A stretch of 18,657 nt of DNA from a virus (lineage: Duplodnaviria; Heunggongvirae; Uroviricota; Caudoviricetes), in IMG/VR virus record IMGVR_UViG_2923344815_000006; one strand, written 5' to 3'. The notes beneath the pieces were generated by a model. That model was given only the letters and a program-made list of their open reading frames with translations. It was not told where the DNA came from and searched no databases. The translations under genes were made by a program, and so were the position numbers. Position 1 is the stretch's first letter, and each line of letters begins with the position of its first letter. Positions 1 through 17,289 of the stretch are shown one piece after another.

Positions 1-504
1 TTACTGATAGTGTTTTATGTTCAGATAATGCCCGATGACCTTGTCATGCAGCTCCACCGATTTTGAGAACGACAGTGACTTCCGTCCCAGCCTTGCCAGA
101 TGTTGTCTCAGATTCAGATTATGTCGCTCAATGCGCTGAGTGTAACGCTTGCTGATAACGTGCAGCTTTCCCTTCAGGCGTGATTCATACAGCGGCCAGC
201 CATCCGTCATCCATACCACGACCTCAAAGGCCGACAGCAGGCTCAGAAGACGCGCCAGTGTGGCCAGAGTGCGTTCACCGAAAACGTGCGCCACAACTGT
301 CCTCCGTATCCTGTCATACGCGTAAAACAGCCAGCGCTGACGTGATTTAGCACCGACGTAGCCCCACTGTTCGTCCATTTCCGCGCAGACAATCACATCA
401 CTGCCCGGTTGTATGCGCGAGGTTACCGACTGCGGCCTGAGTTTTTTAAGTGACGTAAAACCGTGTTGAGGCCAACGCCCATAATGCGGGCAGTTGCCCG
501 GCAT
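1..504 (-). CDS. insB: IS1 transposase InsB (made as InsAB fusion by frameshift)
   Basis: 167-aa translation recognised as IS1 InsB; overlaps insA in the -1 frame as in IS1. Confidence 0.9.
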
Positions 505-698
505 CCAACGCCATTCATGGCCATATCAATGATTTTCTGGTGCGTACCGGGTTGAGAAGCGGTGTAAGTGAACTGCAGTTGCCATGTTTTACGGCAGTGA
601 GAGCAGAGATAGCGCTGATGTCCGGCGGTGCTTTTGCCGTTACGCACCACCCCGTCAGTAGCTGAACAGGAGGGACAGCTGATAGAAACAGAAGCCAC
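423..698 (-). CDS. insA: IS1 protein InsA
   Basis: 91-aa translation ([23 protein letters not shown]...) recognised as IS1 InsA with zinc-finger cysteines. Confidence 0.9.
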
Positions 699-912
699 TG
701 GAGCACCTCAAAAACACCATCATACACTAAATCAGTAAGTTGGCAGCATCACCCACCATGCAGATAGTTAGCAATTCTTTAGTATCTTTTCTGCTCACAC
801 CAACCCCCTTTAGCGTTGTTTAGAATGGCAATCATCATATATCCAAGACATGGCATTTGGTACATAGCTTGGGTCGGGATTTCAAATCCGATCCCCGTTG
901 ATGGGGCCGTTA

Positions 913-1290
913 CAGTACGCGCATATCCGCTTTATGTGAAACAGGAAGATTTTTCTGATATCACTGCCACAGCAAAACACCAATTTCGTGACCAGTACGC
1001 GCGCGAGGGGTATCAGTTGCAAAAATTTTGCAACTACGTCCGACCAGTACGCACACGATGGCGGGGGATACCATGAAACTGTTCTCTACACGAGACAGAG
1101 TGGTGGTGATGTGTTGATTATCGGCGTATATGCGCACAGGACGCGCTATGACGATGTTTTATGCGGGTACACCAATCACATGTATCTGATGTGATAAATC
1201 GTGTTACATGACATCTCATGTTGTGCTGGTGGTTATCACGACGTTCTGAATCTGGCCTTTGCCTGATATTTTGCGACAAGTACGCGCGCG
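913..1290. repeat. Cluster of four copies of a (C/A)AGTACGCGCGCG-like motif plus a perfect 19-bp palindrome, in a non-coding region
   Basis: Motif copies at 913-922, 992-1005, 1044-1057 and 1277-1290; palindrome GTTGCAAAAATTTTGCAAC at 1016-1034; only short overlapping ORFs in the region. Confidence 0.5.
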
Positions 1291-1622
1291 TAGCATCGAA
1301 ATTATCGGATGGCGTATGCTGCTGGCAATATGAAGACCGATAGTATTAACCGAAAAGCGATTAAGGAGTGCCAACTTTTCAGTAGAGAAACTAGCCAGCA
1401 TAGGAAAATGTAGAAATTACCCAATTAATAGGTAAAAGTTATTGACACAGCCTGTAGTGGATAACGATATGAATAAAAACCACATATAGTGGTTTTTCGT
1501 GAGTGATGATAGTATCTATGTTAGTTTCCTAAGTAACTGTGCATTGACATGTGGATAACTTCGGATAGAGTTACAGGCAACCGAGCCCGATCCTCTGTTT
1601 CTCCGCCGCCGATTTCAGGCAT

Positions 1623-2645
1623 GTGAGTTTCACGGTCGGGCCTTTTATTATCTTTTGTTTCGCCACTATGATTGCCGCAAAGCCTCATAAGGACTATCAC
1701 GAATTGCTAGGATTGCTACTTGAACGTGGCATGATTATCAATGATCGAAATCGTGCGATACGTAAGCTGTCGCAGGTTGGATATTATCGATTGTCAGGTT
1801 TTTGGTACCCATCAAGAATTATTGCGACAACAGATAAAGGTCTTTCGTACAGAACAGACCGATTTCTTGCTGGTACCAGTTTCGAGAAGACGTACGATCT
1901 ATATCTTTTTGACAAAAAACTGCGTCTTTTGATGATTGATGCTATCGAAAGAATAGAGATTCATGTTCGTTCAGTCATCGCGCATGAGGTTGGTCGCAAT
2001 GATCCACTTGCCTACATGTCATCAAAATACATTAATCCAAAATTCTCATCTGCCTTCGAGCATTGGGTGTATAAGCAAAAAGTAAAATTAGACGAAAGCA
2101 GAGATGACTGTATTGAATGGCATCGAAGCCAAGGCAAGGAGATTCCATTTTGGGTGGCGGTGGAGACCTGGGATTTTGGTCAGATGTCTAAATATTATGC
2201 GATGCTTAATGGTCATATGCAGGGGAAAATTATACGTCGTTTTGGCATTGATAATAAGCAGACATTTGCAAAATGGTTGAAGTGCCTTAATCTCATAAGG
2301 AATCGTTGCGCTCACCATTCCAGAATATGGAATAGAAAGCATCCCCGAGTTCCAGTACCGGATAATGAATACTTTGACGGACTTAATCTCCATCCAGAGA
2401 GTTGCGAGAGGATTTTTAGCGCGATCTGTATTATCTGGTACTTAGTTAAACGACTTGGTCCGGGATCAACATGGCTTCGGCAAATTGCAGACCTTATTGA
2501 CTCTAAACCAAATGTTCCCGGATGTGGATATGATTCAATGGGTTTACCTGCTAAAGGATTCCCACGAGAGAGATTCTCTCAGGACTTAGGTTTTGTTATC
2601 GCCGACAACGACCCTGTAGCTGAAGGGCGGAAAGGGAGCGATTGA
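1623..2645 (+). CDS. Abi_2 family abortive-infection protein (AbiD/AbiF-like)
   Basis: N-terminal YHELLGLLLERGMII...YYRLSGFWYP and the RNRCAHHSRIWN motif are typical of the Abi_2 family; visibly AT-rich. Start uncertain (1623 or ATG at 1666). Confidence 0.75.
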   Translation: MSFTVGPFIIFCFATMIAAKPHKDYHELLGLLLERGMIINDRNRAIRKLSQVGYYRLSGFWYPSRIIATTDKGLSYRTDRFLAGTSFEKTYDLYLFDKKLRLLMIDAIERIEIHVRSVIAHEVGRNDPLAYMSSKYINPKFSSAFEHWVYKQKVKLDESRDDCIEWHRSQGKEIPFWVAVETWDFGQMSKYYAMLNGHMQGKIIRRFGIDNKQTFAKWLKCLNLIRNRCAHHSRIWNRKHPRVPVPDNEYFDGLNLHPESCERIFSAICIIWYLVKRLGPGSTWLRQIADLIDSKPNVPGCGYDSMGLPAKGFPRERFSQDLGFVIADNDPVAEGRKGSD

Positions 2646-2674
2646 GCGATAAATATCATTTATACACTGATCAA

Positions 2675-3115
2675 TTACTGAAGCAGCGTATTGATTCTTT
2701 TAATATTGTTACCCTGACGCTTCCACGCGCTGTAAATGTCTTTATCCCACGCTTTACCAGCTTTTGTTTGGTAGCCTGCTTCATTGAGCCGTTCCGCTAT
2801 CACACGCCCATTATCAAATCCCTGTCGGATGGTATCGGCAATGATCTTTATAACTGCCGTTTCGTTATATGGCTTTGGTGGGATGTTCGGCTTTCCGGCA
2901 ATAAGCGACGCAGCGGCTTTTTCCATGCGCTCCACCAGCCCAAGCATTCGTGAATCAATAGACTTTTCCGGCTGTCCCAGCTTCATGCGAATCGCATCAA
3001 CAAGCCAGGAGGTTTTATCCCCTCCAGAAGCGAGAACAGACCGATTAAACTCATCCTGCAATTCAGATGGGATGCGGAACGCGACCAGATTAGATTTGCT
3101 CATTGCAAAGACCAT
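2675..3115 (-). CDS. Hypothetical DNA-binding protein (RHH-like N-terminus; C-terminal LNEAGYQTKAGKAW recombinase-domain-like motif)
   Basis: 146-aa ORF convergent with the Abi gene, ending next to iteron block A; alternative ATG at 3103 (MSKSNL...). Confidence 0.55.
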   Translation of the reverse strand: MVFAMSKSNLVAFRIPSELQDEFNRSVLASGGDKTSWLVDAIRMKLGQPEKSIDSRMLGLVERMEKAAASLIAGKPNIPPKPYNETAVIKIIADTIRQGFDNGRVIAERLNEAGYQTKAGKAWDKDIYSAWKRQGNNIKRINTLLQ

Positions 3116-3216
3116 ATCAGTGAGTAATATCCATACAGTATACCACTGTATAACACTGTTATACGCTCAAATATCAGCCAGAAAATAACGGACCAATCAC
3201 AAAGCTATCGCTGTGT

Positions 3217-3338
3217 TGTTGGTTCAGAGCTGGGCTGTGTTGGTTCAAAATGAGTTGATGTTGGTTCAATATTTCAGAAAAAACACAATAAAAACAACGA
3301 TCTTTACAAATTGAACCAACTGAACCAACTGAACCAAC
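3217..3338. repeat. Iteron block A (origin-like): 3 direct TGTTGGTTCA repeats, AT-rich spacer, 3 tandem TGAACCAAC repeats
   Basis: Direct repeats at 3217, 3238 and 3259 (21-bp spacing); tandem inverse-orientation repeats at 3312-3338; near-identical block at 10049-10160. Confidence 0.8.
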
Positions 3339-3374
3339 ACCTTTTTGCTTATCTATATAATCTGAGAGGCAGAA

Positions 3375-3662
3375 ATGATAAGGGACAGGAAAGCTGAAGA
3401 ACTGGAGTCAAAAGGGCTATACCGGAGAGCTGCCGCACGATGGGCAGAAGTCATGATGCTGGCAGATGGCGATAAAGAACGTGAACATGCAGCAAACAGA
3501 CGCTCTGAATGTATCCGTAAGGCGGCACGCCCACCAGCAACTACAGACAGATTCGGAGATTTAAGACAGGCAGTTAAGCGGACTCATTCGGCTCTTGGTA
3601 TGGATGAGGAAGCGAGAGGGTATTTCAGGCGTTATCGCGATAAAGATTGCCAGAGACAGTAA
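3375..3662 (+). CDS. PerC-family transcriptional regulator-like protein
   Basis: 95-aa ORF; ELESKGLYRRAAARWAEVMM...RRSECIRKA resembles the PerC family common in E. coli prophages; GAGAGG Shine-Dalgarno upstream. Confidence 0.6.
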   Translation: MIRDRKAEELESKGLYRRAAARWAEVMMLADGDKEREHAANRRSECIRKAARPPATTDRFGDLRQAVKRTHSALGMDEEARGYFRRYRDKDCQRQ

Positions 3663-3920
3663 TGCTCTCTCTGTTTTGGCAAATTACCCCTCACTTTGAA
3701 GGGATCGGAGCTATAAAAATGGTGTTATCCGGCTTCCTGCATTGCAGGTTTTCGAAAGAATCAATGGGTTAGGTTATCGTGCAAATTTGCACTCTGCCAG
3801 CCAACGCAATTTCTCGTTGGCGGAAATATCAGGTATTTACTGAACGAACGGTCTACCCGCCTGTTCAACTACCAGTTGTACATGGCTGCTTTATGTGCAA
3901 ATGGTGGTGAGAGAAAATTG

Positions 3921-4022
3921 TTTGGGGGTACTTTTGGGGGTATCTCCAAAGATGTAACTGGAAAATGTCTTTATATATCAATGTATTTTTATTGTTTGTT
4001 TTGTTCCTATTATCGCACCATT
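3921..4022 (+). other. Distal att junction of the integrative element (arm-type sites plus imperfect core copy), inverted relative to thrW
   Basis: TTTGGGGGTACTTTTGGGGGTAT (3921-3943) matches rc of 17079-17104 next to the integrase gene; TCCTATTATCGCACCA (4005-4020) matches the tRNA 3-prime end with one 1-nt gap. Confidence 0.6.
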
Positions 4023-4254
4023 AAAATCAAAGAGTTACCCCATATTTAAATACACCACGTTTCCTCCTGTGCCGTATTTGTGCCATTGTAACCTTGGCAA
4101 TTCATCAAAATACTGTTCTGACATCAGGCAGTGCAGGTGCAGACATTTAAGCCAATTGCTGCCGCCATTCTTTGACGTAGTCAATCAGGGCGCGGAGCTG
4201 GTGATGCTGCCAACTTACTGATTTAGTGTATGATGGTGTTTTTGAGGTGCTCCA

Positions 4255-4530
4255 GTGGCTTCTGTTTCTATCAGCTGTCCCTCCTGTTCAGCTACTGACG
4301 GGGTGGTGCGTAACGGCAAAAGCACCGCCGGACATCAGCGCTATCTCTGCTCTCACTGCCGTAAAACATGGCAACTGCAGTTCACTTACACCGCTTCTCA
4401 ACCCGGTACGCACCAGAAAATCATTGATATGGCCATGAATGGCGTTGGATGCCGGGCAACTGCCCGCATTATGGGCGTTGGCCTCAACACGGTTTTACGT
4501 CACTTAAAAAACTCAGGCCGCAGTCGGTAA
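4255..4530 (+). CDS. insA: IS1 protein InsA
   Basis: Translation identical to the InsA ORF of copy 1. Confidence 0.9.
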
Positions 4531-4952
4531 CCTCGCGCATACAACCGGGCAGTGATGTGATTGTCTGCGCGGAAATGGACGAACAGTGGGGCTACGTCGG
4601 TGCTAAATCACGTCAGCGCTGGCTGTTTTACGCGTATGACAGGATACGGAGGACAGTTGTGGCGCACGTTTTCGGTGAACGCACTCTGGCCACACTGGCG
4701 CGTCTTCTGAGCCTGCTGTCGGCCTTTGAGGTCGTGGTATGGATGACGGATGGCTGGCCGCTGTATGAATCACGCCTGAAGGGAAAGCTGCACGTTATCA
4801 GCAAGCGTTACACTCAGCGCATTGAGCGACATAATCTGAATCTGAGACAACATCTGGCAAGGCTGGGACGGAAGTCACTGTCGTTCTCAAAATCGGTGGA
4901 GCTGCATGACAAGGTCATCGGGCATTATCTGAACATAAAACACTATCAGTAA
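4449..4952 (+). CDS. insB: IS1 transposase InsB
   Basis: Translation identical to the InsB ORF of copy 1. Confidence 0.9.
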
Positions 4953-4970
4953 GTTGGAGTCACTACCTGC

Positions 4971-5546
4971 ATGGTGTACTTTTCAATTTATTTTTGTGCA
5001 TACATGGTAGTCCCAGATGAGTTTGAACATGGCAGTATTATTTATTCCATAACATTCTATTTTTTAGAGCTAACACCAATTTTGGCTATCCTTTTGGCAA
5101 TACATATTTATTTTTCCTTAAAAAAAGAATCGACTAATTGGGAGAAGGTATGGAGAGACAGAGGATTTCTAACATCACCTAAAGATGATGCATATGAGAG
5201 TGATTTTTCTGACTTTATAACAAACTACTACTCCAGCGAACAATTCAAAAATAGACTGTCTGATGTTTGGGAAACAGCAATGTATTCCATAGGGATTATA
5301 TTATTGATACTTACTGGTATCGCTCAATATGTTTTTAACATTGACTTATCATTAAATCCTGAAAATTTAATATCGCCATTGATTTTTGGTGAGATATTGA
5401 TCTTCTCATTCGGAATTTTCTTGAGTGTTGTTCTCTGCTCATTATGCAAACTACTGACTAACAGGTATCCAGGTGAAGCAAGGAGAGCAAGAAAGGCAAA
5501 TCCATATTATCTTTTATTTCCTAATGGAGACAGCAGAGATATCTAA
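4971..5546 (+). CDS. Small integral membrane protein (3-4 predicted TM helices), 5-prime end disrupted by IS1
   Basis: 191-aa AT-rich ORF with hydrophobic stretches at about residues 1-13, 23-50, 103-122 and 133-162; starts 4 bp after the IS1 end; its predicted original start and first 15 codons lie at 798..754 on the minus strand. Confidence 0.6.
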   Translation: MVYFSIYFCAYMVVPDEFEHGSIIYSITFYFLELTPILAILLAIHIYFSLKKESTNWEKVWRDRGFLTSPKDDAYESDFSDFITNYYSSEQFKNRLSDVWETAMYSIGIILLILTGIAQYVFNIDLSLNPENLISPLIFGEILIFSFGIFLSVVLCSLCKLLTNRYPGEARRARKANPYYLLFPNGDSRDI

Positions 5547-5564
5547 GCCATCCATGGCTACCAG

Positions 5565-7670
5565 TTATTGAGCTTCTTTTTGTGATGCCTGTGCGACTCT
5601 GGTGAGCGATTGTGTGACCGTACTGATCGCTCTGTCATATGCTGTGCTACCTTTTGGCGTATTTGCCAGACGTAACAAGGCATTTCGTATAACAGGGCTT
5701 TCGTATGCCTTCGCTGCTCCGCCTACGGCACCAGCAGCAGGAACAACAAACGCAGCCGTTTTTAGCATCCCCGCTAATACTGCTGCGTTTATGATGCCAC
5801 CACCAACTAACAATCCATAAAGCTGCTGACCATTTAAGTTTTGAACGTTCGCTTTTGCCGCGTGTCTTGTATCGTTGAGGTATTTAATAACGCCGTCCAG
5901 TTCCTTTCCATGTACGCCTTTAAAGAAAGTTGCTGATTGCTTCCTGTTCCGGTGTAACGCATTAATAAACTTCTCAACACTGATATTTCCAGACGGATCA
6001 GTCGCCTTATCTACAGCATTCTGAACTATGGCTGCTCGTGCGTTTTGCCTACCATTGTCATCCAGAAGCCTGTAAAGCTGAGAACGTTCTGATGGGCTTT
6101 GGCTAAAAACGAGTTTTGTTACATCCTCAGGCGTGGCCTTGCCGCTGGCTATTGCCTTTTGAACGCGCGTTCTTCCCATCATGTCATTGAATTTAGACCA
6201 TGAGCGATCAACCCTTGCCATATTAATGGCTTCGTCTGCTCCAAGATTTTTGGCTACGGCTTTTTTCATATCCGCCGTATATGCCTTGTAGATAATATCG
6301 CTGGCTTTCTGGAGCGTATCTTTATCAACAGTGTCAGATGACGCCATAAATCGCTTTCGAAGATCGGTTCTGTTTTCCCTCGCCAGACGCAGGTCATTTG
6401 GTCCGCTGGTGATATCGTCTTTAAATTGCTGCAAGACTTTTACCGCGGCTCTATCCTGAGATTTGCCCGGGCGGCTTAACACGGCAATCTGATTGTCGAT
6501 AGCTTTTACCGTGTTTGAGAGATCGACAGGGGTATCCCCCATAGCGTCAATTATGCGGTTATATCGCTTTCCTGCTGCCTCAATGAATTTTTGTTGCCCT
6601 TTAGTCGCAGATTCATAAAGCTGTTTATCAGAAATGCCACCCAGACCATCGCTAAATGTTCTGACTAAATTTTCTCGTGCTTGTTGTTGATTCAGCCGAT
6701 TCTTACCGGTTCCAAAAAAAGGAACTCTTTCGCCTAATGTCTGAGCCTGACTCTGCATAAAGGTTTTATCTTTCAGCATGTCACTGGTCATTAACGGCAG
6801 ATTTCTTTCCGATGCAAAGTCGACAGCAGCCTTTGCTTCAGGCGACATATCACCACGAACAGCCCTCGAAACCGCACTCGCTGTATTTTCCAGCCCCTTA
6901 CCAATACCACCAATGCCAGCAGAAATTACCGTTTGTAACGGATCAATATCTTCTCCACCAGCAAGACTGGTGGCTCCCTGTAGTGCTAAATCTGTAGCTG
7001 CTGATTTTCCTATGGCACTAAGCACCGTTCCAGCCCTGCCCGCTGGTGTAAACGCCAACGCATTAGCAAGAAACGAGGTCAGGTCTTGCGGTGATAAACC
7101 CGGCTTGTTCAGGGCATAATCACCTGATGGCAGAGAAACGATAGTATTCCCCTTCTCATCCTGCCTTAATGTCGCCCCCATTCCCTGAAGAATCTTTTCC
7201 TGAGACGCGTCAGAGCCGAAAAGTTGAGACCATCCAGCCTTTAGGGCATCCATGCTTAGTGAGTTCAATTCTGGGGCAGAGGCGACATTTTGCAGTCTCT
7301 CCATCTCTGGAGTCATTCGGCTTTCGCCTGTTATAGCATCGCGCATCGCAGCCCCAAGACTGGCTCCCTGTTCTGCTGAACGCTCAAGCCCCTCTCTTTG
7401 CTGAGTAGCTAACTTTGCATACCCTGACGCAAGAGAATTATCAGATGATGTATGTTGAATATTTTGAGTTGCTGATTGGGATCGGTCTATTTCATTCGTT
7501 GATGGTAGTGGATAGGCAGCATAAAAAGCCTGCTTAGCCTGCTCTACACTTTCTCCGGCTTGCGGGGCCACGACTTCATTGAAGTATTGCTCCTGAGCCT
7601 GCGCTTTTTGTTCTGGTGCTAACGCCTGATACTGTGGAGAGGCGATAACATCTTTCCATGCTTTAGCCAT
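5565..7670 (-). CDS. Uncharacterised 701-aa Ala/Gln/Ser-rich protein with C-terminal hydrophobic Gly/Ala-rich segment
   Basis: Long ORF coupled to the upstream gene by a TAATG stop-start overlap; no enzymatic motif I recognise; hydrophobic segment LYGLLVGGGIINAAVLAGMLKTAAFVVPAAGAVGGAAKAY near the C-terminus. Confidence 0.7.
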   Translation of the reverse strand: MAKAWKDVIASPQYQALAPEQKAQAQEQYFNEVVAPQAGESVEQAKQAFYAAYPLPSTNEIDRSQSATQNIQHTSSDNSLASGYAKLATQQREGLERSAEQGASLGAAMRDAITGESRMTPEMERLQNVASAPELNSLSMDALKAGWSQLFGSDASQEKILQGMGATLRQDEKGNTIVSLPSGDYALNKPGLSPQDLTSFLANALAFTPAGRAGTVLSAIGKSAATDLALQGATSLAGGEDIDPLQTVISAGIGGIGKGLENTASAVSRAVRGDMSPEAKAAVDFASERNLPLMTSDMLKDKTFMQSQAQTLGERVPFFGTGKNRLNQQQARENLVRTFSDGLGGISDKQLYESATKGQQKFIEAAGKRYNRIIDAMGDTPVDLSNTVKAIDNQIAVLSRPGKSQDRAAVKVLQQFKDDITSGPNDLRLARENRTDLRKRFMASSDTVDKDTLQKASDIIYKAYTADMKKAVAKNLGADEAINMARVDRSWSKFNDMMGRTRVQKAIASGKATPEDVTKLVFSQSPSERSQLYRLLDDNGRQNARAAIVQNAVDKATDPSGNISVEKFINALHRNRKQSATFFKGVHGKELDGVIKYLNDTRHAAKANVQNLNGQQLYGLLVGGGIINAAVLAGMLKTAAFVVPAAGAVGGAAKAYESPVIRNALLRLANTPKGSTAYDRAISTVTQSLTRVAQASQKEAQ

Positions 7671-9148
7671 TAATCACCCCATAGTGAAGAAAAGTTACTG
7701 CTGGCTGCTGGCTGTGATACCTGCTCAGATTGCGGCAATGTCTGCGACGAAGAAGCAGTTCCTCTGTCAACTGCTGAAATAACCCGCAAAGCATCATAAG
7801 TTCGACCAGAAGCAGCTTTCAGCGAATTGAACTGGTTTTCCATCTTCCGGCGCTTGGTATCAATGGTTTTTGTGGAATCACCAGGCTGAGGGAAATACAT
7901 TTGATAATATTTGGACATTTCAGCTGGTAGGATAGATGCCCCTGTTTCCTGACGGAGTATTGCCATTATTGCGTCATTAGCATTAACAACGTATTGCTGC
8001 TCTGCTGGGCTGAGCGTTAAGTTAGCCAGCGTCCCATTACCCAAAGCATTATTAATGATCGCCACTCGCTGTGGGCTAAGCTGGTCTTTCAGTGTATCTA
8101 TTGAATCAAGAGCATCCCTAACCCTGTATGCAAATCCAGCAGCTTTTTTAGCCCCTTCTGGCGACTTTTCCATGATCTTTTGGGCTGTTGGCAAAGCTAT
8201 TGGACGAAACCCATCTCCAGATATTGGCTGGTTTAGTTTTCCCTGCTCTTCACTTCCGTCTGTGTAGTATTTTGTGACAGTGCCATCATCGTTTTCTCTA
8301 ACACTCATTAATTTTTTGGCGTTTGTATTAATTCCAGCCGCTGCCGCAAATGCCGCCGCCCCCTCTGGATCCGCCTTTAACATTTGAGCGTACTGATTGT
8401 AATTCTGCATTGCTGCTGTTGGTGCATATGCTGACGTTAACGCATTTGCTCGGCTAATATCCTGCCCTCTCGCCTGAAGTGCTTCGCCAGCCTGATTGCT
8501 GCGGATTGTCTCTGCCAACTTGCCACGCTCAATATCCCGACCTTCCATTTGATCTTTGATATCGAAATACTTCTCATGACCGAGAGAAAACAGCGCCAGA
8601 TTACCTGCGAAATGCTGGAAGCCCTGCGGGTCATTAACCTGCATTTCAGCAATAGTTTCTGGAGGGATACCTAAACGACGCATCTCCTGCTCATTATCCA
8701 TCATGAACCTGCCAAATGCGCCCTGACCAAGCGATGAGGCTACCTGTGCTTTGAGCGCCAGATTGCCATAATCATCCCTTTGAGCATCATCGACATAACT
8801 CATCCCTTTACGGACTTCCTCAAACTCTTCTGGGAATGCTGTAATAAGATTACGCATCTGCTCCCTGTCACCGGACGCATAAGCATCTGCATAAGCTTTC
8901 TGGAATGCCGCTTTACGCTCCTGCTGTTGCTGCTGCTTATAAATATCAGCAACGCCAGCCAGACCACGAAGACCTGTCAGAGCAACGTTATTTGCACCTG
9001 AGCGAGCCAGTTCATTGTTTTCGCGGATCAGACCAAGCGTTGCGTTAATGTCGCTTGCCTTTGGCGCATTCTCATTTTGCGTACCGATGCCAGCCAGAAA
9101 ACCACCAGAATTAATACCCTGTTGCCACGTAGCCATTGATTTACCCAC
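7670..9148 (-). CDS. Uncharacterised 492-aa Ala/Gln-rich low-complexity protein
   Basis: Long ORF; probable true start is ATG at 9136 (MATWQQ...) rather than the GTG at 9148; poly-Q stretch and Ala-rich tracts. Confidence 0.7.
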   Translation of the reverse strand: MGKSMATWQQGINSGGFLAGIGTQNENAPKASDINATLGLIRENNELARSGANNVALTGLRGLAGVADIYKQQQQQERKAAFQKAYADAYASGDREQMRNLITAFPEEFEEVRKGMSYVDDAQRDDYGNLALKAQVASSLGQGAFGRFMMDNEQEMRRLGIPPETIAEMQVNDPQGFQHFAGNLALFSLGHEKYFDIKDQMEGRDIERGKLAETIRSNQAGEALQARGQDISRANALTSAYAPTAAMQNYNQYAQMLKADPEGAAAFAAAAGINTNAKKLMSVRENDDGTVTKYYTDGSEEQGKLNQPISGDGFRPIALPTAQKIMEKSPEGAKKAAGFAYRVRDALDSIDTLKDQLSPQRVAIINNALGNGTLANLTLSPAEQQYVVNANDAIMAILRQETGASILPAEMSKYYQMYFPQPGDSTKTIDTKRRKMENQFNSLKAASGRTYDALRVISAVDRGTASSSQTLPQSEQVSQPAASSNFSSLWGD

Positions 9149-9314
9149 GTCCAGTTAAAGTGTAAGCCAGCGCCTTATCCATTAATCCCCGAGCAATTTC
9201 GTGGATCGTTGGCGCAACTCCTACCTCTGATTTTTTACGCTGCTCCTCCTGAATTTTCTTTATCGCTTCCATTTGCTTCTCACTTATCAATACTGGCTTT
9301 ACTGAAATAGCCAT
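9141..9314 (-). CDS. Small 57-aa protein, possible ribbon-helix-helix regulator (not in supplied ORF track)
   Basis: ATG at 9314 preceded by AAGGGGG Shine-Dalgarno; translation MAISVKPVLISEKQMEAIKKIQEEQRKKSEVGVAPTIHEIARGLMDKALAYTLTGRG; stops 5 nt before the 492-aa gene ATG. Confidence 0.5.
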   Translation of the reverse strand: MAISVKPVLISEKQMEAIKKIQEEQRKKSEVGVAPTIHEIARGLMDKALAYTLTGRG

Positions 9315-9494: not shown

Positions 9495-9956
9495 TTATGG
9501 AGTCGCATTACTCTTCATGGCGTGAGCTTTCCTGTTCTCTCTTTGTTCCTGGTTCCATGGATAAGTGTAATTGCCACCAGCAAAGACCATATTGATTTTG
9601 TGAGGAACCATTAAAGCGATATCAGCACTCATGTCACTGAATGAAACACAGTGCAGACGTTCAAGCCATTTGTATGCTGCTGCCGCTTCTCCCCACAAAT
9701 TAATCCCTGCAAGTTCAACAATATCTCTGATGGAGCAGATATCAACCATCCCGTTAACGCCTGTAAAACGGCGTTTAAAGTCGCCAAGATACTTTCTGAA
9801 AAGAGTTGCTTTCATTGGTTCAGAAAGGTCTATGTATGGGAACACAACCACATCAAGCAGCATCTCCCTTCTGTTGTTCATCGGTATTACAGATGGCAAA
9901 TCGGATACTTTGCCAAATACATGATGAAAAGCCTTTGCGATTATCTTCATCATCAA
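9495..9956 (-). CDS. Hypothetical 153-aa protein
   Basis: ORF with GGGAG Shine-Dalgarno; probable start ATG at 9953; between iteron block B and its own terminator; no recognised motif. Confidence 0.6.
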   Translation of the reverse strand: MMMKIIAKAFHHVFGKVSDLPSVIPMNNRREMLLDVVVFPYIDLSEPMKATLFRKYLGDFKRRFTGVNGMVDICSIRDIVELAGINLWGEAAAAYKWLERLHCVSFSDMSADIALMVPHKINMVFAGGNYTYPWNQEQRENRKAHAMKSNATP

Positions 9957-10048
9957 TCTCCCACTGAAACCAGTGATGTGGTGTTCAGATTTCGTAAAAC
10001 ACTCTCTAATGCCAGCCAGATGTTGTGCTCATCAATTCAGTCACGTTG

Positions 10049-10160
10049 TGTTGGTTCAAAATGCCGTGTTGTTGGTTCAGTGTTGGTTCAATAAAAAGAA
10101 TAAAATCCTTATAAAACAATACTCTTTACAAATTGAACCAACTGAACCAACTGAACCAAC
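10049..10160. repeat. Iteron block B (origin-like), same organisation as block A
   Basis: TGTTGGTTCA at 10049, 10070 and 10081; tandem TGAACCAAC at 10134-10160; shares CTTTACAAATTGAACCAACTGAACCAACTGAACCAACACCTTTT with block A; lies just 3-prime of the helicase-like gene. Confidence 0.8.
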
Positions 10161-10185
10161 ACCTTTTCTACGCACATGAAGAAGC

Positions 10186-11316
10186 TCATTCTTCAGATGA
10201 GTTGTAATCTCCTGGCTGGTAATTGAGTACATAAACGTTTATTTGTCGTCCCTGAATACGTGGTGATTTTCTTTGGTATCCACGACCGCTGTTTGGTGGG
10301 GTTAGCATCCCGGCTTTTTTCAACACTTCAGCAAACTGTTTTGCGTTGAAACCACATGCGATCTCCTTTTCAAATGTGGCCGGGAATGTGTAGAAAATCA
10401 TTGGGCTTTCGTCATGTTCTCCACGCTGACGGTATCCGGCTAAATCTTTGATGGGCAAATCTGCCGGGCTGTATGGAAATGGTGCAAAACGGCTAAGCCC
10501 ATAGGCATTAAGAAATGCCTCCGTTTGTTCAATAATCTGCTGATGCTCTTTGTTACCTGTGCCGAACTCGCGCAACCATGCGTTATAGCTGTGCTGTATC
10601 GCATCACGGCATGTCTGAGCATCCCAGCCTGTTACAACCTCGCCTAACAACAATGCGGCCTCCAGAATGGCAAATCGCGCGGCTACACGGTGAACCTGCT
10701 CACCATAATCGGATGGGATCAGGCTTCTCCATCTGCTTTCGCAGTCACGAACAGTTTTAATAGCCTGTTGCTGGTGGTCTGCCAGCCATTTAATCCACTC
10801 ACGCCCGGACGCGCCGTGGTGATGCTGGTAAGCGTCTTTCAGTGCGTCTGCGTGCTGTTTTCCGTTCTGGTAATCGTGAAAGCGTACTGCTTTACTCAAC
10901 GGAATATTCAGCAGTCGCACCATTTGCCCGGCTTTGGTTTTTCGCCCGGAAGTAGCGATAAATGTTTCTAAATCCATTTCTCCGGTGCTGATTGCCACTG
11001 TACGCCAGCGTTTTAGATCCCGGTTTCCACCATCTTTAGCGCCTTGCAGTTTCCCTACACCGTTAAATAACGCATAGGCAGACTGTGAAACACTGACAGG
11101 ATCAGCGCCCTGACCAACTTCATCAAGCGGCATTAGTCCGTCATTGTGGGCGGCAGCTTCATTTGCCAGCCCCAGCGCGGTTCCGTACCACGTCAGCCGC
11201 AGTAAATCAGGGTTGCCGTATAAGCTGCTCGCCACGTTTGCCGTGGTGGTCTTACCTGCGCTCGACTGCTCATAGAAATGAATGCCGAACCCGTCAGCGC
11301 CCACCAGCCCAATCAA
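10186..11316 (-). CDS. DUF927/SF3 helicase-like replication protein (P4 alpha / PICI Rep C-terminal type), apparently 5-prime-truncated
   Basis: Walker A (SSAGKTT) within ...AAHNDGLMPLDEVGQ...RWRTVAISTGE...KAGQMVRLLNIP, typical of the DUF927 helicase domain; ORF-track start is a TTG; in-frame stop at 11374-11376 with no ATG upstream. Confidence 0.65.
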   Translation of the reverse strand: MIGLVGADGFGIHFYEQSSAGKTTTANVASSLYGNPDLLRLTWYGTALGLANEAAAHNDGLMPLDEVGQGADPVSVSQSAYALFNGVGKLQGAKDGGNRDLKRWRTVAISTGEMDLETFIATSGRKTKAGQMVRLLNIPLSKAVRFHDYQNGKQHADALKDAYQHHHGASGREWIKWLADHQQQAIKTVRDCESRWRSLIPSDYGEQVHRVAARFAILEAALLLGEVVTGWDAQTCRDAIQHSYNAWLREFGTGNKEHQQIIEQTEAFLNAYGLSRFAPFPYSPADLPIKDLAGYRQRGEHDESPMIFYTFPATFEKEIACGFNAKQFAEVLKKAGMLTPPNSGRGYQRKSPRIQGRQINVYVLNYQPGDYNSSEE

Positions 11317-11429
11317 TGGCGCTGCCAGTGCTGCGCCGATCCCGGTCAGCCCAGCACATGAGGCCAGTTGTTTTCAGACGCACTGATAACCTGACGGATA
11401 AGATCAATGTTTCGCATTCTGGCCCCCGT

Positions 11430-12032
11430 TTAGTGCGTCACTGGTGCTTCTGGGATGCCGTTTTCGTTTAGTTCGGCAATAAAGCTGTTGTGAAGATCGG
11501 CAAGCACTTCTCGCCCAAACGAAGTGAGTGTTCCCTGTTCGACATCGAACATGTTGCTGTAAAAAATGATGGCATTCTTTGTTCCGACATCAACACCATA
11601 TTTCTCGATCATTGCGCCCTCAATGTTGTTTGCCATAGCGAGGCGCTCTGCTACTGGATACAGCGGCATGGCGACGATGCCATTGGAATAAACAGAAACC
11701 ACGGAATGATTGCCACTGTCATCAATAATGCTGACGGTGCCGTTTCCCTTTCTCATTTCATTGATGAATGCTGTTGCTATCAGCCAGCGCCACATAATCA
11801 CGTGATGCTGTGATGTGTAATCGAAATATCCCTGGTTGCCGCCACTGGCAATAGCGAGATGTATAAACATGCCTTCATCTGGTTTATCGTCATAATCCCC
11901 GGCATCCAGACGATTTACGGCATCAATATATGAGACGGTCTCAACGCGTTCTGTCATGCCATCGTTGCTGCGGTGCATGATGTTTACGCCGTCAGGCGTT
12001 GCTTCTGCATGGAAGGTTAAGAAATTATTCAT
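11430..12032 (-). CDS. Hypothetical 200-aa protein (upstream of the helicase-like gene, different frame)
   Basis: ORF-track ORF 11430..12137; probable start ATG at 12032 (MNNFLTF...), overlapping the upstream gene stop by 8 nt. Confidence 0.5.
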   Translation of the reverse strand: MNNFLTFHAEATPDGVNIMHRSNDGMTERVETVSYIDAVNRLDAGDYDDKPDEGMFIHLAIASGGNQGYFDYTSQHHVIMWRWLIATAFINEMRKGNGTVSIIDDSGNHSVVSVYSNGIVAMPLYPVAERLAMANNIEGAMIEKYGVDVGTKNAIIFYSNMFDVEQGTLTSFGREVLADLHNSFIAELNENGIPEAPVTH

Positions 12033-12246
12033 GTTTCGCCTCGCCTGAATGATTCTGTAACTCATATTTGCCCAACAATTCGTCTGCTTCCTGAATAGCT
12101 TCTGGTACGCCATTGAGCAGTGACATAACCGCGCCAATCATTAACTTGTCTCTGTTGCTGGGGCTGGCCCCTTCAAGCCAGAACCCTAAAACAGTCTGAA
12201 CCTGTTCGATGCGACATTGCGCTTCAATGAGCTGGATGTTGGTCAT
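12025..12246 (-). CDS. Hypothetical small protein (73 aa)
   Basis: ATGA stop-start overlap with the upstream gene at 12243-12246. Confidence 0.5.
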   Translation of the reverse strand: MTNIQLIEAQCRIEQVQTVLGFWLEGASPSNRDKLMIGAVMSLLNGVPEAIQEADELLGKYELQNHSGEAKHE

Positions 12247-12506
12247 TTCGCACTCTCCACATCGATTAAACTGATATCTATCAGGGAGGTAACTTTTTGT
12301 AGCCAGCTATTGATTACTGTCGCCTGTTCCCCTCCCACCGAGGGAATAATCTCATTCATCACATGAACCAGACCTGTGCGCGCTCTGGTAAGCCGTTCAG
12401 TCGCGCAATCTGCGGGAGTGAATGTGTCTGGATATGGCTCTTCGCGCCCCAGCAATGATTCAATTTCCAGCTCACACGGATGACGATAAATTAAGTTGAT
12501 ATTCAT
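12243..12506 (-). CDS. Hypothetical small protein (87 aa)
   Basis: ATGA stop-start overlap with the upstream gene at 12503-12506. Confidence 0.5.
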   Translation of the reverse strand: MNINLIYRHPCELEIESLLGREEPYPDTFTPADCATERLTRARTGLVHVMNEIIPSVGGEQATVINSWLQKVTSLIDISLIDVESAK

Positions 12507-12697
12507 TTTTCACCCCCAAGAATTACCAGCTCGGCACGGGCATCGTTAACCAAAGATGAGCACGCTTTAATCGCATCCACGACATCAGCAGCGTCCATTT
12601 CTTCAGCCGAAAGACTGACAGCAACCAGGACAGCCGCTGCTTGCTCGATTAATTGAAGTGCGGACGTAAGGCGAGGGGTATTAATTGAGTTATTCAT
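12503..12697 (-). CDS. Hypothetical small protein (64 aa from ATG 12697; ORF-track alternative start 12754)
   Basis: Internal ATG ([10 protein letters not shown]...) 8 nt upstream of the preceding gene stop, consistent with the coupling seen along this gene chain. Confidence 0.45.
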   Translation of the reverse strand: MNNSINTPRLTSALQLIEQAAAVLVAVSLSAEEMDAADVVDAIKACSSLVNDARAELVILGGEK

Positions 12698-13757
12698 TGG
12701 TTGCCCCCGTTTTGCATGGCATTTGTCCACCTTCCAGCAGGAAATGAACGTCACGAACGGCGAGATCCAATATCGCGAGTAACGCCTTCAGTTTTTCGTC
12801 TCGTGAGGGAGAGTTGCTCACCAGAATGTCATTAATCACTTCTGTCAGTGTGATGATCTGGCTTGTGCGTTCGAGGGGATCCATATGCACATCGTAGGTT
12901 TTAATCATGTGCCACCTCCATGCGGATACGACCAGCAAAAAAGCAGACGTGATCGCGCACCAGAGAACGGCGAGCATCGCGTTCAGACTCGGCAGCAATA
13001 TGATGAATTTTGGCGGTAATTGTCGGGCAATCGCGGCGAACTGCGGCGATAATCCAGATAAATTGCGGTTTTTGGGTAGGGGTAGTAGCCAGCATGTGGC
13101 AGCCTCCATTCGATAGCATGTAACGCTACCACCGGAAACGCCAATTTCGCTGGTGGTAGCCCAGACAGGGTTGGCGTAACCGGCTCGAATGGATACCGGC
13201 GCTTCCGAAGAAGCCCCTGCCTGAGCCACCATTGATTGACAAAGGCGCTGGATTATACACCAACGCCCAAAAAATGGGTGAGTCAGACCTACGACATAAA
13301 AAAAGACGCTCGGCGCGTCATATGTCGCCATTCGATTTACCAGGACGCCAATCCCGGCACCCGTTTTATGAGGTGCCTTATAACCATAAACCGTGTTGCC
13401 GCATAACGGCAAGCTCTTTTTTATGGACTCCGAAAACTCACTATTGGAAGAACCAGAAGCACAGTACATCGCGCTCATTTCGTTAACGTCACGCGCGTGG
13501 ACGAATGTTTTTGTGGAGTCACTACACGAGCAGAACAGGTCATCTACGACCAGAAATTCTCTGGCGCAGCCGCTGACCTTCTCAACGCTAACATCATCGA
13601 CCGTGATTTCTGACATAGTTAAGGCATCCGCTCCTACCACCAGCAAATGATAAACTTTGCTTGTATCTGCTGTATTAATGCCTGACTTTGCTGTCATATT
13701 GCTGGATTTTGGCGACATGCCAGCCAGTGAAAATGTCTTCTTCTGGGCGGTTAGCAT
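12690..13757 (-). CDS. Long ORF of uncertain coding status; C-terminal 72 codons from ATG 12907 look like a genuine small helical protein
   Basis: 356-codon open frame coupled to the upstream gene, but the central part is Trp/Cys-rich and not protein-like, and 12900-13120 is open in three frames. Confidence 0.3.
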
Positions 13758-13933
13758 TTGTTAACCTCCGCGAACTCCTTCATGAAACGTGCCAGCGGTT
13801 GTACGCATGGCGATTGATACCCGTCGCGATAAAACGTCACTCGGTTGTGAGACACGCTTTCGACAGTAACGAGTGCTCCGTGGGCATCTTTGTAGCGTTT
13901 TTGAGGTTGTGGTGTTCCTGTCGGCTTAAACAT
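13751..13933 (-). CDS. DUF4222-like small phage protein
   Basis: 60-aa product from ATG 13933 (ORF-track ORF starts at 14020); RYKDAHGALVTVESVSHNRVTFYRDGYQSPCVQPLARFMKEF resembles the DUF4222 family. Confidence 0.6.
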   Translation of the reverse strand: MFKPTGTPQPQKRYKDAHGALVTVESVSHNRVTFYRDGYQSPCVQPLARFMKEFAEVNKC

Positions 13934-14759
13934 GGACCGCCTCCAGACGCTTAGCGAGCCAGCGTTGCGACAGGCGGGTGAGTTCTCCTTTGCGCTGCTC
14001 ATATTCCATGCCCATATCAATTAACGTGATATTGGTGCTTTCGAGATATGAGAGGTGCTCAAGCTGTTCTGCGTTCATATGGTCGCGAGGTTCGCCAGAA
14101 TAGCCATTTATCCGCGCCCACTGCTTAGCAGTTAGCCCACCAAGAACGATACGAGAAATCATATTGCTCTCGTTTGTGTAGTGGTGTTGCTGCGTCGTTT
14201 TCCCCTGCTCGGCACGGGCCATGTTCAGCGCATCGCACATTGGCTTAAAGTTGTTTGCGGCACTGATACGGGCTTTTAGCTGGCGACGATAGCGGGCGGC
14301 GATTTCAGGAACGCTACGCTGTAATTCTTCCTCGCACTGGATGAAATAACGACGGATAGCGCGACCCTGATCATTGCGTTCGATCATTGCCAGTTCTTTC
14401 GCCATTCCGACACTTAACAGATAGTCTTTGCCGGGTCTGCCAGAGTGCTTAATCTTGCTGTAAGCCGCGCCATTCGGGCTTTTCCCCAAATTTGGGGAAA
14501 TTGTTTTATGGACTGAGTAATCGTGCCCAATGGTGAAGTCATATTCAGAGATGCGATCAGTGATCCATGTAGAGAAGTCTTTTCCCACGCCCAACGCTTT
14601 GTGTAACGCTTTTGCGCTAACAATATTGGTTTCACGCCCACCTATATGACCAGGAATAACCGGGACAATTGCGGCAAATTCATTACCGTTAATTGTGCCC
14701 AGAGAGGCGTTCAGATGAGGGGCAGCCTCAGAAATTAATCTGCTTTTTTCGATGTTCAT
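13926..14759 (-). CDS. Phage antirepressor-like protein (Bro-N / KilAC type)
   Basis: 277-aa ORF; DYLLSVGMAKELAMIERNDQGRAIRRYFIQCEEEL is characteristic of antirepressor DNA-binding domains; GGAG Shine-Dalgarno. Confidence 0.65.
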   Translation of the reverse strand: MNIEKSRLISEAAPHLNASLGTINGNEFAAIVPVIPGHIGGRETNIVSAKALHKALGVGKDFSTWITDRISEYDFTIGHDYSVHKTISPNLGKSPNGAAYSKIKHSGRPGKDYLLSVGMAKELAMIERNDQGRAIRRYFIQCEEELQRSVPEIAARYRRQLKARISAANNFKPMCDALNMARAEQGKTTQQHHYTNESNMISRIVLGGLTAKQWARINGYSGEPRDHMNAEQLEHLSYLESTNITLIDMGMEYEQRKGELTRLSQRWLAKRLEAVHV

Positions 14760-14771
14760 TTTCAGTCTCCG

Positions 14772-15203: not shown

Positions 15204-15406
15204 CAGGCCACCTCGTCTCTAGATTCTAATATACACTTCTCAATCCATTCATCTATTTCAGACTCAACAAAAGCAATTGCCCGACTTCCAATTTTTACCT
15301 GTTTAGGGAACCTCCCCTGACTAATAAGACGATAAATCCATGCTTTGCTATAACCAGTTCGCCTTTGAACTTCAGAGAGACGAATTAATGAATTGTAATT
15401 AGCCAT
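15203..15406 (-). CDS. alpA: AlpA-family transcriptional regulator (excisionase-like HTH)
   Basis: 67-aa product IRLSEVQRRTGYSKAWIYRLISQGRFPKQVKIGSRAIAFVESEIDEWI matches the AlpA family; located next to the integrase gene. Confidence 0.85.
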   Translation of the reverse strand: MANYNSLIRLSEVQRRTGYSKAWIYRLISQGRFPKQVKIGSRAIAFVESEIDEWIEKCILESRDEVA

Positions 15407-15833: not shown

Positions 15834-17048
15834 TCATGCGTGTTTTTCAAACACCATATGCACCACATTTCCGCCATGCTCGAGAGAATCCATATAGTCG
15901 GCATACCATTGAAGCATCTCCCGCCGTCCATCCAGATATTGCGCATGGTTGTATGTGCCACGAATTGAGTTCTTATCAACGTGAGCGAGCTGCGTTTCTA
16001 TCCACGCGGTGTTATAGCCCTGCTCATGCAAAATCGTGCTCATAGTGTGTCGGAACCCATGACCAGTTACACGTCCAGCGTAGCCAATGCGCTTAAACAC
16101 TTGGTTTATGCTGGCCTCACTCATTGTTTTCCTTGGATCATTGCGCCCGGGAAACATAAGAGGGTAATTGCCTGTTATTTCTCTAATCTTCCCAATAAGC
16201 GAAAGAGCCTGCTCAGACAATGGCACAATATGAGGCCGCCGCATTTTCATACGTGAAGCGGGTATCTCCCATATAGCCTTGTTGAAATCAATTTCATCCC
16301 ATAATGCGCCACGTAGTTCGCCAGTTCGCAAGCCGGTGATAATCAGTAGGCGAGCCGCCATAACAACCAATGCGCTTCCTGAGTAACTGGATAATGCCTT
16401 GAAAAAATCAGGTAATTCTTTGGTCGTAAGGAAAGGGTAATGATTAGATTCATGGCCTTGCATCGCGCTAGTAAGGTCTGGTGCAGGGTTATACTCTGCG
16501 CGACCAGTGACTATTGCATAGCGGAAAACTTCCCCGCACCGCTGCCTCACTTTTTTGGCTTTTTCTGTCGCACCGCGCCCCTCGATGCGCCGCAGCACAT
16601 TCAGAAGTTCAAGTGGTTTGATTTCGGCGATTGGTTTTTTGCCAATGTAAGGGAACACATCTTTGTTGAAGGCTTCGAGGATGTCTGAAGCATAACCAGC
16701 AGACCATTTTTTTAATTTGCTGCTGTGCCACTCAAGGGCAATATCTTTGAAGGTGTTGTTTAACTGCGTTTCCCGGGCAATCTTTTCCTCTCGTTTCGCT
16801 TCCATCGGATCGATACCACCAGCGATACCTCTTTTCGCATCTTCACGTTTTGCCCGAGCATCGGCTAGAGTAACCTCAGGATACACACCTAGTGCCAATA
16901 GCTTCTCTTTACCTGCTACACGATATTTAAGTCGCCAGTATTTACCTCCATTAGGTTTTACCAAGAGATACAAACCGCCACCATCGGCCAGCTTGTAAGC
17001 CTTCTCTTTTGGCTTGGCTGTGTCTATTTGACGGGCATTGAGTTTCAC
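15834..17048 (-). CDS. P4-type tyrosine integrase (DUF4102 arm-binding N-terminus)
   Basis: 404-aa product; N-terminal ...AKPKEKAYKLADGGGLYLLVKPNGGKYWRLKYR... and C-terminal R..HGFRHT..Y-type catalytic region; GTG start with GGAGG Shine-Dalgarno; adjacent to the tRNA. Confidence 0.9.
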   Translation of the reverse strand: MKLNARQIDTAKPKEKAYKLADGGGLYLLVKPNGGKYWRLKYRVAGKEKLLALGVYPEVTLADARAKREDAKRGIAGGIDPMEAKREEKIARETQLNNTFKDIALEWHSSKLKKWSAGYASDILEAFNKDVFPYIGKKPIAEIKPLELLNVLRRIEGRGATEKAKKVRQRCGEVFRYAIVTGRAEYNPAPDLTSAMQGHESNHYPFLTTKELPDFFKALSSYSGSALVVMAARLLIITGLRTGELRGALWDEIDFNKAIWEIPASRMKMRRPHIVPLSEQALSLIGKIREITGNYPLMFPGRNDPRKTMSEASINQVFKRIGYAGRVTGHGFRHTMSTILHEQGYNTAWIETQLAHVDKNSIRGTYNHAQYLDGRREMLQWYADYMDSLEHGGNVVHMVFEKHA

Positions 17049-17049
17049 T

Positions 17050-17213: not shown

Positions 17214-17289
17214 TGGTGCCGATAATAGGAGTCGAACCTACGACCTTCGCATTACGAATGCGCTGCTCTACCAACTGAGCTATATCGGC
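17214..17289 (-). tRNA. thrW: tRNA-Thr (anticodon CGT)
   Basis: Reverse complement reads GCCGATATAGCTCAGTTGGTAGAGCAGCGCATTCGTAATGCGAAGGTCGTAGGTTCGACTCCTATTATCGGCACCA: canonical cloverleaf, CGT anticodon, CCA end. Confidence 0.95.

Follow-up and report, generated by a model that had tools for sequence, protein, structure and literature searches.

The stretch of DNA analysed here, hereafter the window, is the 18,657-nucleotide virus record IMGVR_UViG_2923344815_000006 of IMG/VR, and our subject is a pair of converging genes within it, one for a 701-residue protein on the minus strand (5565..7670) and one read as a 191-residue open reading frame (ORF) on the plus strand (4971..5546). The two stop codons face each other across a gap of 18 bp (5547-5564), and a terminator scan found none in or near this gap. 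The window is Escherichia coli chromosome: positions 4968-7670 are 100 % identical to E. coli strain 99-3165, and the whole window corresponds to 7034-25690 of locus L001 of that strain. An earlier note on this DNA had described a convergent arrangement with an AT-rich membrane protein gene, and both features are real, with a G+C content of 33.6 % in 5001-5500, where the small gene lies, against 45-51 % in the flanks. It had left two readings side by side, a pore-forming bacteriocin with its immunity protein and a phage ejection protein followed by a sieA-like exclusion protein. Our results favour the second: by homology the large gene encodes an ejection protein of the P22 gp16 family and the small one a SieA homologue, in a convergent layout like that of phage P22. 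The setting is not the phage or bacteriocin locus that had been assumed, as the pair lies on a phage satellite, a phage-inducible chromosomal island (PICI), and the small gene is broken by the insertion sequence IS1.

The 701-residue protein is identified by homology as a gp16-family DNA ejection (injection) protein. It matched phrog_770 (‘DNA transfer protein’) with E 1e-162 and, by BLASTP, P22 gp16 with 31 % identity over 435 residues (E 2e-52). Among its 1903 homologues, 119 of the 120 listed carry PF26808 (Phage_P22_gp16), as do homologues at 93-97 % identity, and the annotation pipeline PGAP names an identical gene ‘P22-gp16 family phage DNA ejection protein’. Ejection proteins of the gp16 type are packed in the capsid, are released on adsorption and, together with gp20 and gp7, form a conduit for DNA across the periplasm and the inner membrane. 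The label ‘secreted-type’, which had been attached to the protein, is inaccurate for a member of this family, which would be internal to the virion and ejected into the envelope of the target cell. Directly upstream lies the gene for a gp20-family ejection protein (7670..9148, minus strand; PGAP start at 9136), recognised by PF16928 (Inj_translocase, E 5.5e-84) and phrog_917 (E 9e-143), with one base, 7670, common to both genes. In sister islands gp16 is the last gene of a gp14-gp7-gp20-gp16 module, of which gp14 and gp7 are absent from the window.

The only hydrophobic peak of the 701-residue protein on the Kyte-Doolittle scale is a Gly/Ala-rich segment at residues ~614-654 (5709..5831, minus strand), which is the C-terminal hydrophobic hairpin of the earlier note. 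In P22, mutations enabling the phage to evade SieA fall in the C-terminal parts of both gp16 and gp20 (Leavitt et al. 2024, PMC10883804). When the gp16 escape sites from that study were aligned to the 701-residue protein, G532 corresponded to G614 and P546 to K637, placing them at the edge and inside of the hydrophobic segment, respectively. The segment also contains a nine-residue insertion, YGLLVGGGI, which among seven gp16 proteins compared was present only in those of the E. coli island and of Citrobacter. It is modelled at a predicted local distance difference test score (pLDDT) below 50.

The ORF that converges on gp16 is the 3’ part (codons 14-204 of 204) of a gene for a putative inner-membrane protein of the SieA family; the intact 204-residue protein is WP_000087355. 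Its match to phrog_7745 (‘SieA-like’) is weak (E 3.7e-4), and BLASTP aligned it with P22 SieA at E 8e-8 and with the type-B SieA of E. coli HS (prophage HS1) at E 2e-9, while profile-profile comparison with hhalign against a SieA alignment gave a probability of 99.3 % (E 2.5e-20). When 1.84 billion representative proteins were searched with a profile, 42 clusters were obtained, about 105-430 residues in length and mostly 160-200; nearly all also match P22 and HS1 SieA pairwise, and most end in a RYPGEA..RK-type motif or a close variant. The aligned-family profile in turn retrieves PF26849 (SIEA) proteins, some of them named ‘superinfection exclusion protein A’. Two motifs, YSSExxxNRxSD and RYPGEAxxxRK, are both present in the small protein. 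At the site of the published C-terminal motif, FxRYPxEAxxFNK (PMC10883804), it reads LTNRYPGEARRARK, which keeps the RYPGEA core and the final K and lacks the leading F and the ‘FN’; most representatives of the SieA-like family read ..RK in place of FNK. Its closest relatives come from Citrobacter freundii (50 % identity), Serratia fonticola (38 %) and Providencia/Proteus (31 %). By sequence homology the small protein is a member of the SieA family, closest to the ‘type C’ branch.

SieA of P22 (type A) and of HS1 (type B) are each sufficient to block DNA injection by P22-like phages, and the two types do not differ in target specificity; P22 SieA excludes P22 itself (PMC10883804). Type C, from Providencia and Proteus, has an N-terminal extension of ~40 residues with an extra helix and a short C-terminal extension; there are three helices in type A and four in types B and C (PMC10883804). 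The earlier note had proposed four membrane-spanning segments for the small protein, and this topology is also predicted for the 204-residue form, which has four hydrophobic segments by Kyte-Doolittle and four long helices spanning them in an AlphaFold model (residues 3-26, 35-76, 105-135 and 149-176; mean pLDDT 74). From the distribution of positive charge we would read a cytoplasmic location for the N-terminus, for the central loop and for the C-terminal motif, in agreement with where the published work predicts the motif to lie (PMC10883804). A SieA-profile sequence search of the PDB returned nothing, a Foldseek search of the SieA-like model against the BFVD viral structures gave no match, and tblastn of the protein against 50,697 phage records likewise gave no match. 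The protein has no match in our local copy of Pfam, where the gp16 query is also without a family despite its PF26808 homologues.

An ORF of 19 codons (MMIAILNNAKGGWCEQKRY; L002 11926-11985, about 777-836 of the window, minus strand) overlaps the GTG start of the SieA-like gene. One additional base in some alleles brings it into frame, which yields annotated forms of 218 residues and longer, and it also supplies the annotated N-termini of other genes found at this position. Because this upstream ORF is in frame in some alleles, the true start codon of the SieA-like gene is uncertain, as it is for P22 sieA.

The small membrane protein gene of the earlier note stands as an ORF of 191 codons at 4971-5546 and falls as an intact gene, being what follows an IS1 element in a gene of 204 codons. 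IS1 copy B (4200..4967, plus strand; 768 bp with insA and insB) was recognised by the Pfam families InsA and InsB, by 92-99.8 % identity to IS1 in phage records and by its terminal repeats. It is followed at 4968..4976 by a 9-bp target-site duplication, TGCATGGTG, where homology to IS1-free relatives starts, and the ATG at 4971 lies inside this duplication; in those relatives the protein has 204 residues from a GTG start 36 nt further upstream. The displaced 5’ end of the gene (GTG start, codons 1-12) is found at 763..798 on the minus strand as an exact 36-nt match to the intact gene of sister locus L002, where 0 chance matches are expected. Beside it, at 754..762, is the second copy of the duplication as its reverse complement (CACCATGCA), which abuts the inverted-repeat end of IS1 copy A (1..753, minus strand). 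Copy A, cut by the start of the window and inverted relative to copy B, was identified from its ORFs (1-504 and 423-698, minus strand), a terminal repeat and the IS1 family transposase annotated in L001. On the other side of the displaced codons, 799..1335 (minus strand) holds the displaced upstream region with the presumed promoter and ribosome-binding site, 95-97 % identical to the region upstream of the corresponding position in L002, L011, L020 and L021, whichever ORF follows there. A consensus promoter scan of 799-1335 gave a sole match, which is weak evidence.

Because the 36-nt 5’ end, the reverse-complement duplication and the second IS1 occur at 763-798, 754-762 and 1-753, we conclude that IS1 inserted after codon 12 of the SieA-like gene. 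A later IS1-mediated rearrangement then turned 754-4199 around and left the first 12 codons, with the promoter and ribosome-binding site, on the other strand at a distance of 4.2 kb. A simple inversion between two IS1 elements, with matching duplications on both, holds only by half, as a clean 9-bp duplication exists at the SieA-like gene only. At the other IS1 ends the outer flanks differ from each other, so a further deletion or rearrangement occurred; ~12 kb present in strain RM10386 (L010) are missing from the window. The exact IS1-gene junction was found in one of 5426 complete genomes, that of strain 99-3165, with a two-piece variant match in FMU073332, and the disruption is a recent, strain-level event. 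The 191-codon ORF is left without its promoter and ribosome-binding site, and its product would lack 13 residues and roughly a quarter of the first membrane helix, so the SieA-like gene is most likely inactive in this strain.

The facing orientation of the two genes is that of P22, in which gene 16 and sieA converge across a gap of 22 bp. The Citrobacter, Serratia and Providencia relatives of the small gene likewise converge on a PF26808 gene, from which they are separated by 3-22 bp. Because the Citrobacter, Serratia and Providencia/Proteus genes adjoin mnt/arc/ant, and the Citrobacter locus also has tailspike and head genes, these relatives occupy the classical sieA position in P22-like prophages. 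With the P22 layout recurring in three related lineages, the pairing of gp16 with a SieA-like gene is not due to chance. The SieA-like gene of the window is convergent to gene 16 but does not lie within a P22-like prophage, and a PICI context was found in all five E. coli island loci carrying the gene that were inspected. In the published survey, the sieA genes studied were without exception situated between genes 16 and 9 of a P22-like prophage, and those reported from E. coli were of types A and B only (PMC10883804).

The frequency of the two genes was assessed by searches of the 5426 complete E. coli genomes, by contig look-ups and in IMG/VR. The SieA-like gene is present in 103 of these genomes, always at 99 % identity or more, and in 99 of the 103 it is contiguous with the gp16 allele of the window, which itself occurs in 398 genomes. 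The co-occurrence that had been suggested as a check on the pair thus holds in one direction, from the SieA-like gene to gp16, and fails in the other, as ~75 % of the genomes with the gp16 allele have no SieA-like gene. Two scans of genome contigs for SieA-like loci found nothing, and the broad alignment was too diverse for a pattern search. Islands whose gp16 is 93-99.9 % identical hold other genes in the facing position: a 129-residue protein with four hydrophobic segments (L020, 4492-4881; L023, 6593-6982) or a 146-residue protein with a signal peptide (L021, 4900-5340; L022, 6498-6938), and L019 14632-15330 is also listed among the variants. The SieA profile matched neither the 129-residue nor the 146-residue protein, as tested in L020 and L021. 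The C-terminal 120 residues of gp16 are identical beside the SieA-like gene and beside the 129-residue gene of L020, and a gp16 that is 93 % identical adjoins the 146-residue secreted protein. Conservation of the flanks extends, on one side, as far as a shared Shine-Dalgarno sequence and GTG start and, on the other, as far as the stop codon of the variable gene; in the window these boundaries lie at 795-798 and 5546-5548. Because near-identical gp16 alleles stand beside at least three other genes, between conserved flanks, the position facing gp16 is a cassette exchange site for small envelope proteins and the genes that meet there form no obligate toxin-immunity or matched pair.

These distributions bear directly on the bacteriocin reading, in which the C-terminal segment of the 701-residue protein would kill by forming a pore and the membrane protein would protect the producer. 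What suggested it was a large protein with one C-terminal hydrophobic stretch facing a small polytopic membrane protein, and, in the account of Perez et al. relayed in PMC10883804, P22 gp16 is membrane-associated. The large protein, however, is a gp16-family virion protein encoded after gp20, and after gp14 and gp7 as well in intact islands, and Pfam reveals no colicin or pore domain in it. It has no relative in the PDB by sequence; by fold, a Foldseek search of its model returned nothing at E ≤ 0.001, a weak test since the model has pLDDT < 50 over residues 602-658. The annotation shows no lysis gene next to the pair, and the supposed protector is dispensable: sieA is carried by 22 of 66 sequenced P22-like phages (PMC10883804), and gp16 does not need the SieA-like gene, because ~75 % of the genomes with its allele do without it. 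We therefore consider a toxin-immunity function extremely improbable.

A milder form of pairing would have the SieA-like protein co-evolved with the gp16 next to it, such that the island's own particles escape SieA or SieA shields its producer; the earlier note had spoken of ‘matched protection’. The contiguity of the two genes in 99 of 103 cases is in keeping with such a match, as is the parallel fall in gp16 and SieA identities across lineages (76/50 %, 62/38 % and 34/31 %) and the presence of the nine-residue gp16 insertion beside the two most similar SieA-like proteins and its absence from the other five. Physical linkage, however, explains the co-divergence equally well, and a gp16 with an identical C-terminus stands beside a non-SieA cassette in L020, with the same insertion found beside a third cassette in L021. 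The lack of any difference in target specificity between types A and B, and the exclusion of P22 by its own SieA (PMC10883804), also argue against it. A matched pair is thus very unlikely, and the ‘matched protection’ does not agree with 398 genomes carrying the gp16 allele against 103 carrying the SieA-like gene, nor with other cassettes beside near-identical gp16. The SieA-like gene would be an accessory exclusion gene inherited facing gene 16, and does not serve the adjacent gp16 as immunity partner.

The pair lies at the distal end of a PICI of the EcCIMP1 type, now decayed, that is integrated at a tRNA-Thr gene, and not in a P22-like prophage. From the tRNA-Thr (17214-17289, by ARAGORN) the island runs through an integrase (15834..17048, minus strand; PGAP), an AlpA-type regulator, an AntA/B antirepressor, DUF4222, Ash and a primase, which is truncated here, and continues with a 57-residue ORF, gp20, gp16, the convergent cassette, a PerC-like gene and att. 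The features of an EcCIMP1-like PICI are present: an integrase, an AlpA-type regulator, a primase module and an att core at tRNA-Thr, with no capsid, tail or lysis genes. Window positions 11432-18657 are 96 % identical to the EcCIMP1 locus of strain MP1, and the parts with integrase, regulatory genes and primase are 96-98 % identical to EcCIMP1. The att core, GATAATAGGA, lies inside the tRNA-Thr gene at 17221..17230 and is the reverse complement of the published EcCIMP1 core, TCCTATTATC (PMC11773190); a second copy, matching TCCTATTATC and inverted, lies in the rearranged segment at 4005..4014. The primase gene (10186..11349, minus strand) is a pseudogene retaining only the C-terminal DUF927 part (PF06048; PGAP ‘missing N-terminus’), with ~2.3 kb deleted relative to L002. 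The rearrangement inverted the distal att core at 4005-4014; therefore integrase-mediated excision should no longer be possible. With its truncated primase, inverted att copy and two IS1 elements, the copy of the island in the window is unlikely to be mobile.

This context recurs for the large gene in E. coli: the 701-residue gp16 gene lay on a satellite island in 9/9 loci inspected, all of the EcCIMP1-like kind, and no nucleotide-level match to it was found among sequenced phages. The primase-gp14 junction is contiguous in 240 genomes, and at a second chromosomal site this architecture is found together with another integrase and another primase. Like the island of the window, those of strains 510016, W170 and NCTC9022 have no gp14 and gp7, with the primase intact in these strains. 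A comparison of window 7670-9314 with L002 14704-17435 revealed two stable island variants, one with gp14-gp7-gp20-gp16 and one with gp20-gp16 only, the latter preceded by the 57-residue ORF; in this shorter variant the N-terminus of gp20 differs at the DNA level (window 8957-9165).

EcCIMP1 is a PICI of E. coli MP1 that is excised and transferred by the P22-like phage Kapi1, and it adds superinfection immunity against Kapi1 by a mechanism that is unexplained (Pick, Stadel & Raivio 2025, PMC11773190). The authors of that study pointed out ‘DNA transfer’ genes that lie downstream of its primase, and SieA goes unmentioned in their paper (PMC11773190). This was the only paper on SieA or ejection proteins on satellites that our literature search found, and none that it found links SieA with PICIs. 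No SieA homologue was found in EcCIMP1.

Several further features of the region were observed. An element of ~88 bp occurs twice, at window 10081-10167 and 3259-3345 (L002 17915-18001 and 10459-10545); in it an AT-rich spacer is surrounded by three TGAACCAAC repeats and by two or three GTTGGTTCA copies in inverted orientation. Of the two occurrences, one is found immediately downstream of the primase gene and one upstream of the PerC-like gene, and in intact islands they bracket the module of ejection proteins and cassette; the element has the look of an iteron-type origin of replication or of a shared regulator-binding site. At 1623-2645 (plus strand) there is an AbiD-like abortive-infection gene (PADLOC AbiD, E 8e-58; PGAP ‘Abi family protein’), and beside it are a 146-residue ORF (2675-3115, minus strand) and the PerC-family regulator (3375-3662). 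A 153-residue ORF (9495-9956, minus strand) lies in a stretch of ~430 bp (9558-9992) that is absent from sister islands, and it had no match in Pfam, PHROG or PADLOC. In E. coli HS (L004/L005; NC_009800 291741-335045) a full P22-like prophage, HS1, with a type-B sieA occupies the same tRNA-Thr site and is followed by a tandem integrase, WP_000772656, which heads a BREX-carrying island. This integrase has an accession number next to that of the window's island integrase (WP_000772646), and accession numbers are all that was compared between the two. The tRNA-Thr gene is thus a shared landing site at which such islands and P22-like prophages can be direct neighbours and could swap modules.

The explanation we favour, to which we assign a probability of roughly 75 %, is that a gp16-type ejection gene here faces an accessory exclusion gene of the SieA family on a decayed PICI, and that the exclusion gene has been inactivated by IS1 in this strain. 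The intact 204-residue protein would, by homology to types A and B, reside in the inner membrane of the island-carrying cell. As long as the element is resident, the gene would have its own transcription, separate from that of the convergent late-type operon, and its product would block DNA delivery by incoming P22-like phages through interference with the gp20/gp16 conduit. Both this exclusion function and its target we infer from sequence kinship. Some observations count against this explanation. The small protein is just 29-34 % identical to the SieA types that have been tested, A and B, in an alignment covering the C-terminal ~110 residues, and it has ‘ARK’ where the published motif has ‘FNK’. 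It carries no precomputed PF26849 domain, though other members of the family do, and no NCBIfam or PADLOC match, P22 SieA itself matching nothing there. Because EcCIMP1 gives immunity with no SieA homologue found, SieA is not the sole route to exclusion in this island family. As to the loss of function, a GGAG stands 11 nt upstream of the ATG, and read-through from IS1 could still express the truncated ORF.

The same low identity would also fit an accessory membrane protein that has nothing to do with DNA entry, such as one for envelope modification or a regulator of lysis, whose likeness to SieA reflects a shared membrane scaffold; the position facing gp16 does accept unrelated small envelope proteins, and this one had no defence-database match. 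A scaffold effect is at odds, however, with a conservation that is concentrated in two soluble motifs and not in the membrane helices, with the profile-profile probability of 99.3 % and with the occupation of the classical sieA position in four lineages, and we regard such an unrelated function as improbable.

If an accessory SieA-family exclusion gene is what faces gp16, a functional name becomes available for a ‘hypothetical protein’ in ~2 % of complete E. coli genomes. The biology of ejection proteins and of SieA is known, and the copy in the window is a casualty of IS1 in which nothing new is expected to work. What is new is a branch of the SieA family in E. coli beyond the recognition of Pfam, NCBIfam and PADLOC, a SieA-family gene on a phage satellite, where P22-like prophages only were known before (PMC10883804), and a defined cassette site facing gp16, swapped precisely from start codon to stop codon. 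That site is the obvious place to seek the anti-helper immunity of EcCIMP1-type islands, and its variants (the SieA-like protein, the 129-residue and 146-residue proteins and a lipoprotein in MP1) are candidates for the superinfection immunity of EcCIMP1.

A wider proposal is that EcCIMP1-like satellites may carry a self-contained entry-control module of their own ejection proteins and a swappable exclusion cassette. Helper capsids would be refitted with the satellite's gp20 and gp16, accompanied or not by its gp14 and gp7; the SieA-type or other envelope protein would shut out P22-like phages and rival satellites; and the unusually hydrophobic gp16 C-terminus, at the region of the SieA-escape sites, would be an adaptation for passing SieA-type barriers. 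If so, the cassettes would explain the superinfection immunity of EcCIMP1. The proposal is speculative, and we think it unlikely to hold.

Compared with known systems, the resemblance to pore-forming colicins and their immunity proteins is superficial only, a large protein with a hydrophobic C-terminus beside a small polytopic one; homology, colicin domains and an annotated lysis gene are lacking, and the partner is dispensable. The likeness to the ejection proteins of P22 gp16 and Sf6 type (PF26808) extends to the family, the place after gp20, the helical character and a C-terminal YES..RN.LLRLANT region. The island gp16 differs from that of P22 in its length (701 against 609 residues) and in a C-terminal segment that is more hydrophobic and contains the nine-residue insertion. 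P22 SieA was reportedly the subject of work by Hofer in 1995. With the P22 SieA family the small protein shares homologous sequence, including the cytoplasmic RYPxEA motif, and a predicted polytopic inner-membrane architecture; its gene, like P22 sieA, is AT-rich, lies directly after gene 16 in convergent orientation and, where intact, has its own upstream region of ~520 bp. An extra N-terminal helix is common to it and types B and C, and a short C-terminal extension to it and type C, and its nearest named relatives are from Providencia and Proteus, the type C genera of Leavitt et al. It stands apart in sequence, its identity being 29-34 % with types A and B and 31 % with the form from Providencia, in its place on a PICI satellite of E. 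coli, in its interruption by IS1 in the window and in having no precomputed SIEA match. The island shares with EcCIMP1 the tRNA-Thr site by proA, the att core, the 96-98 % identical integrase, regulatory and primase modules, the PerC-like gene and ‘DNA transfer’ genes downstream of the primase. It differs in having no gp14 and gp7, a truncated primase, an inverted att copy and two IS1 elements, whereas EcCIMP1 encodes a different protein at the gp16 position, of 906 residues with a lytic transglycosylase domain, followed on the same strand by a 232-residue lipoprotein with an LAGC lipobox.

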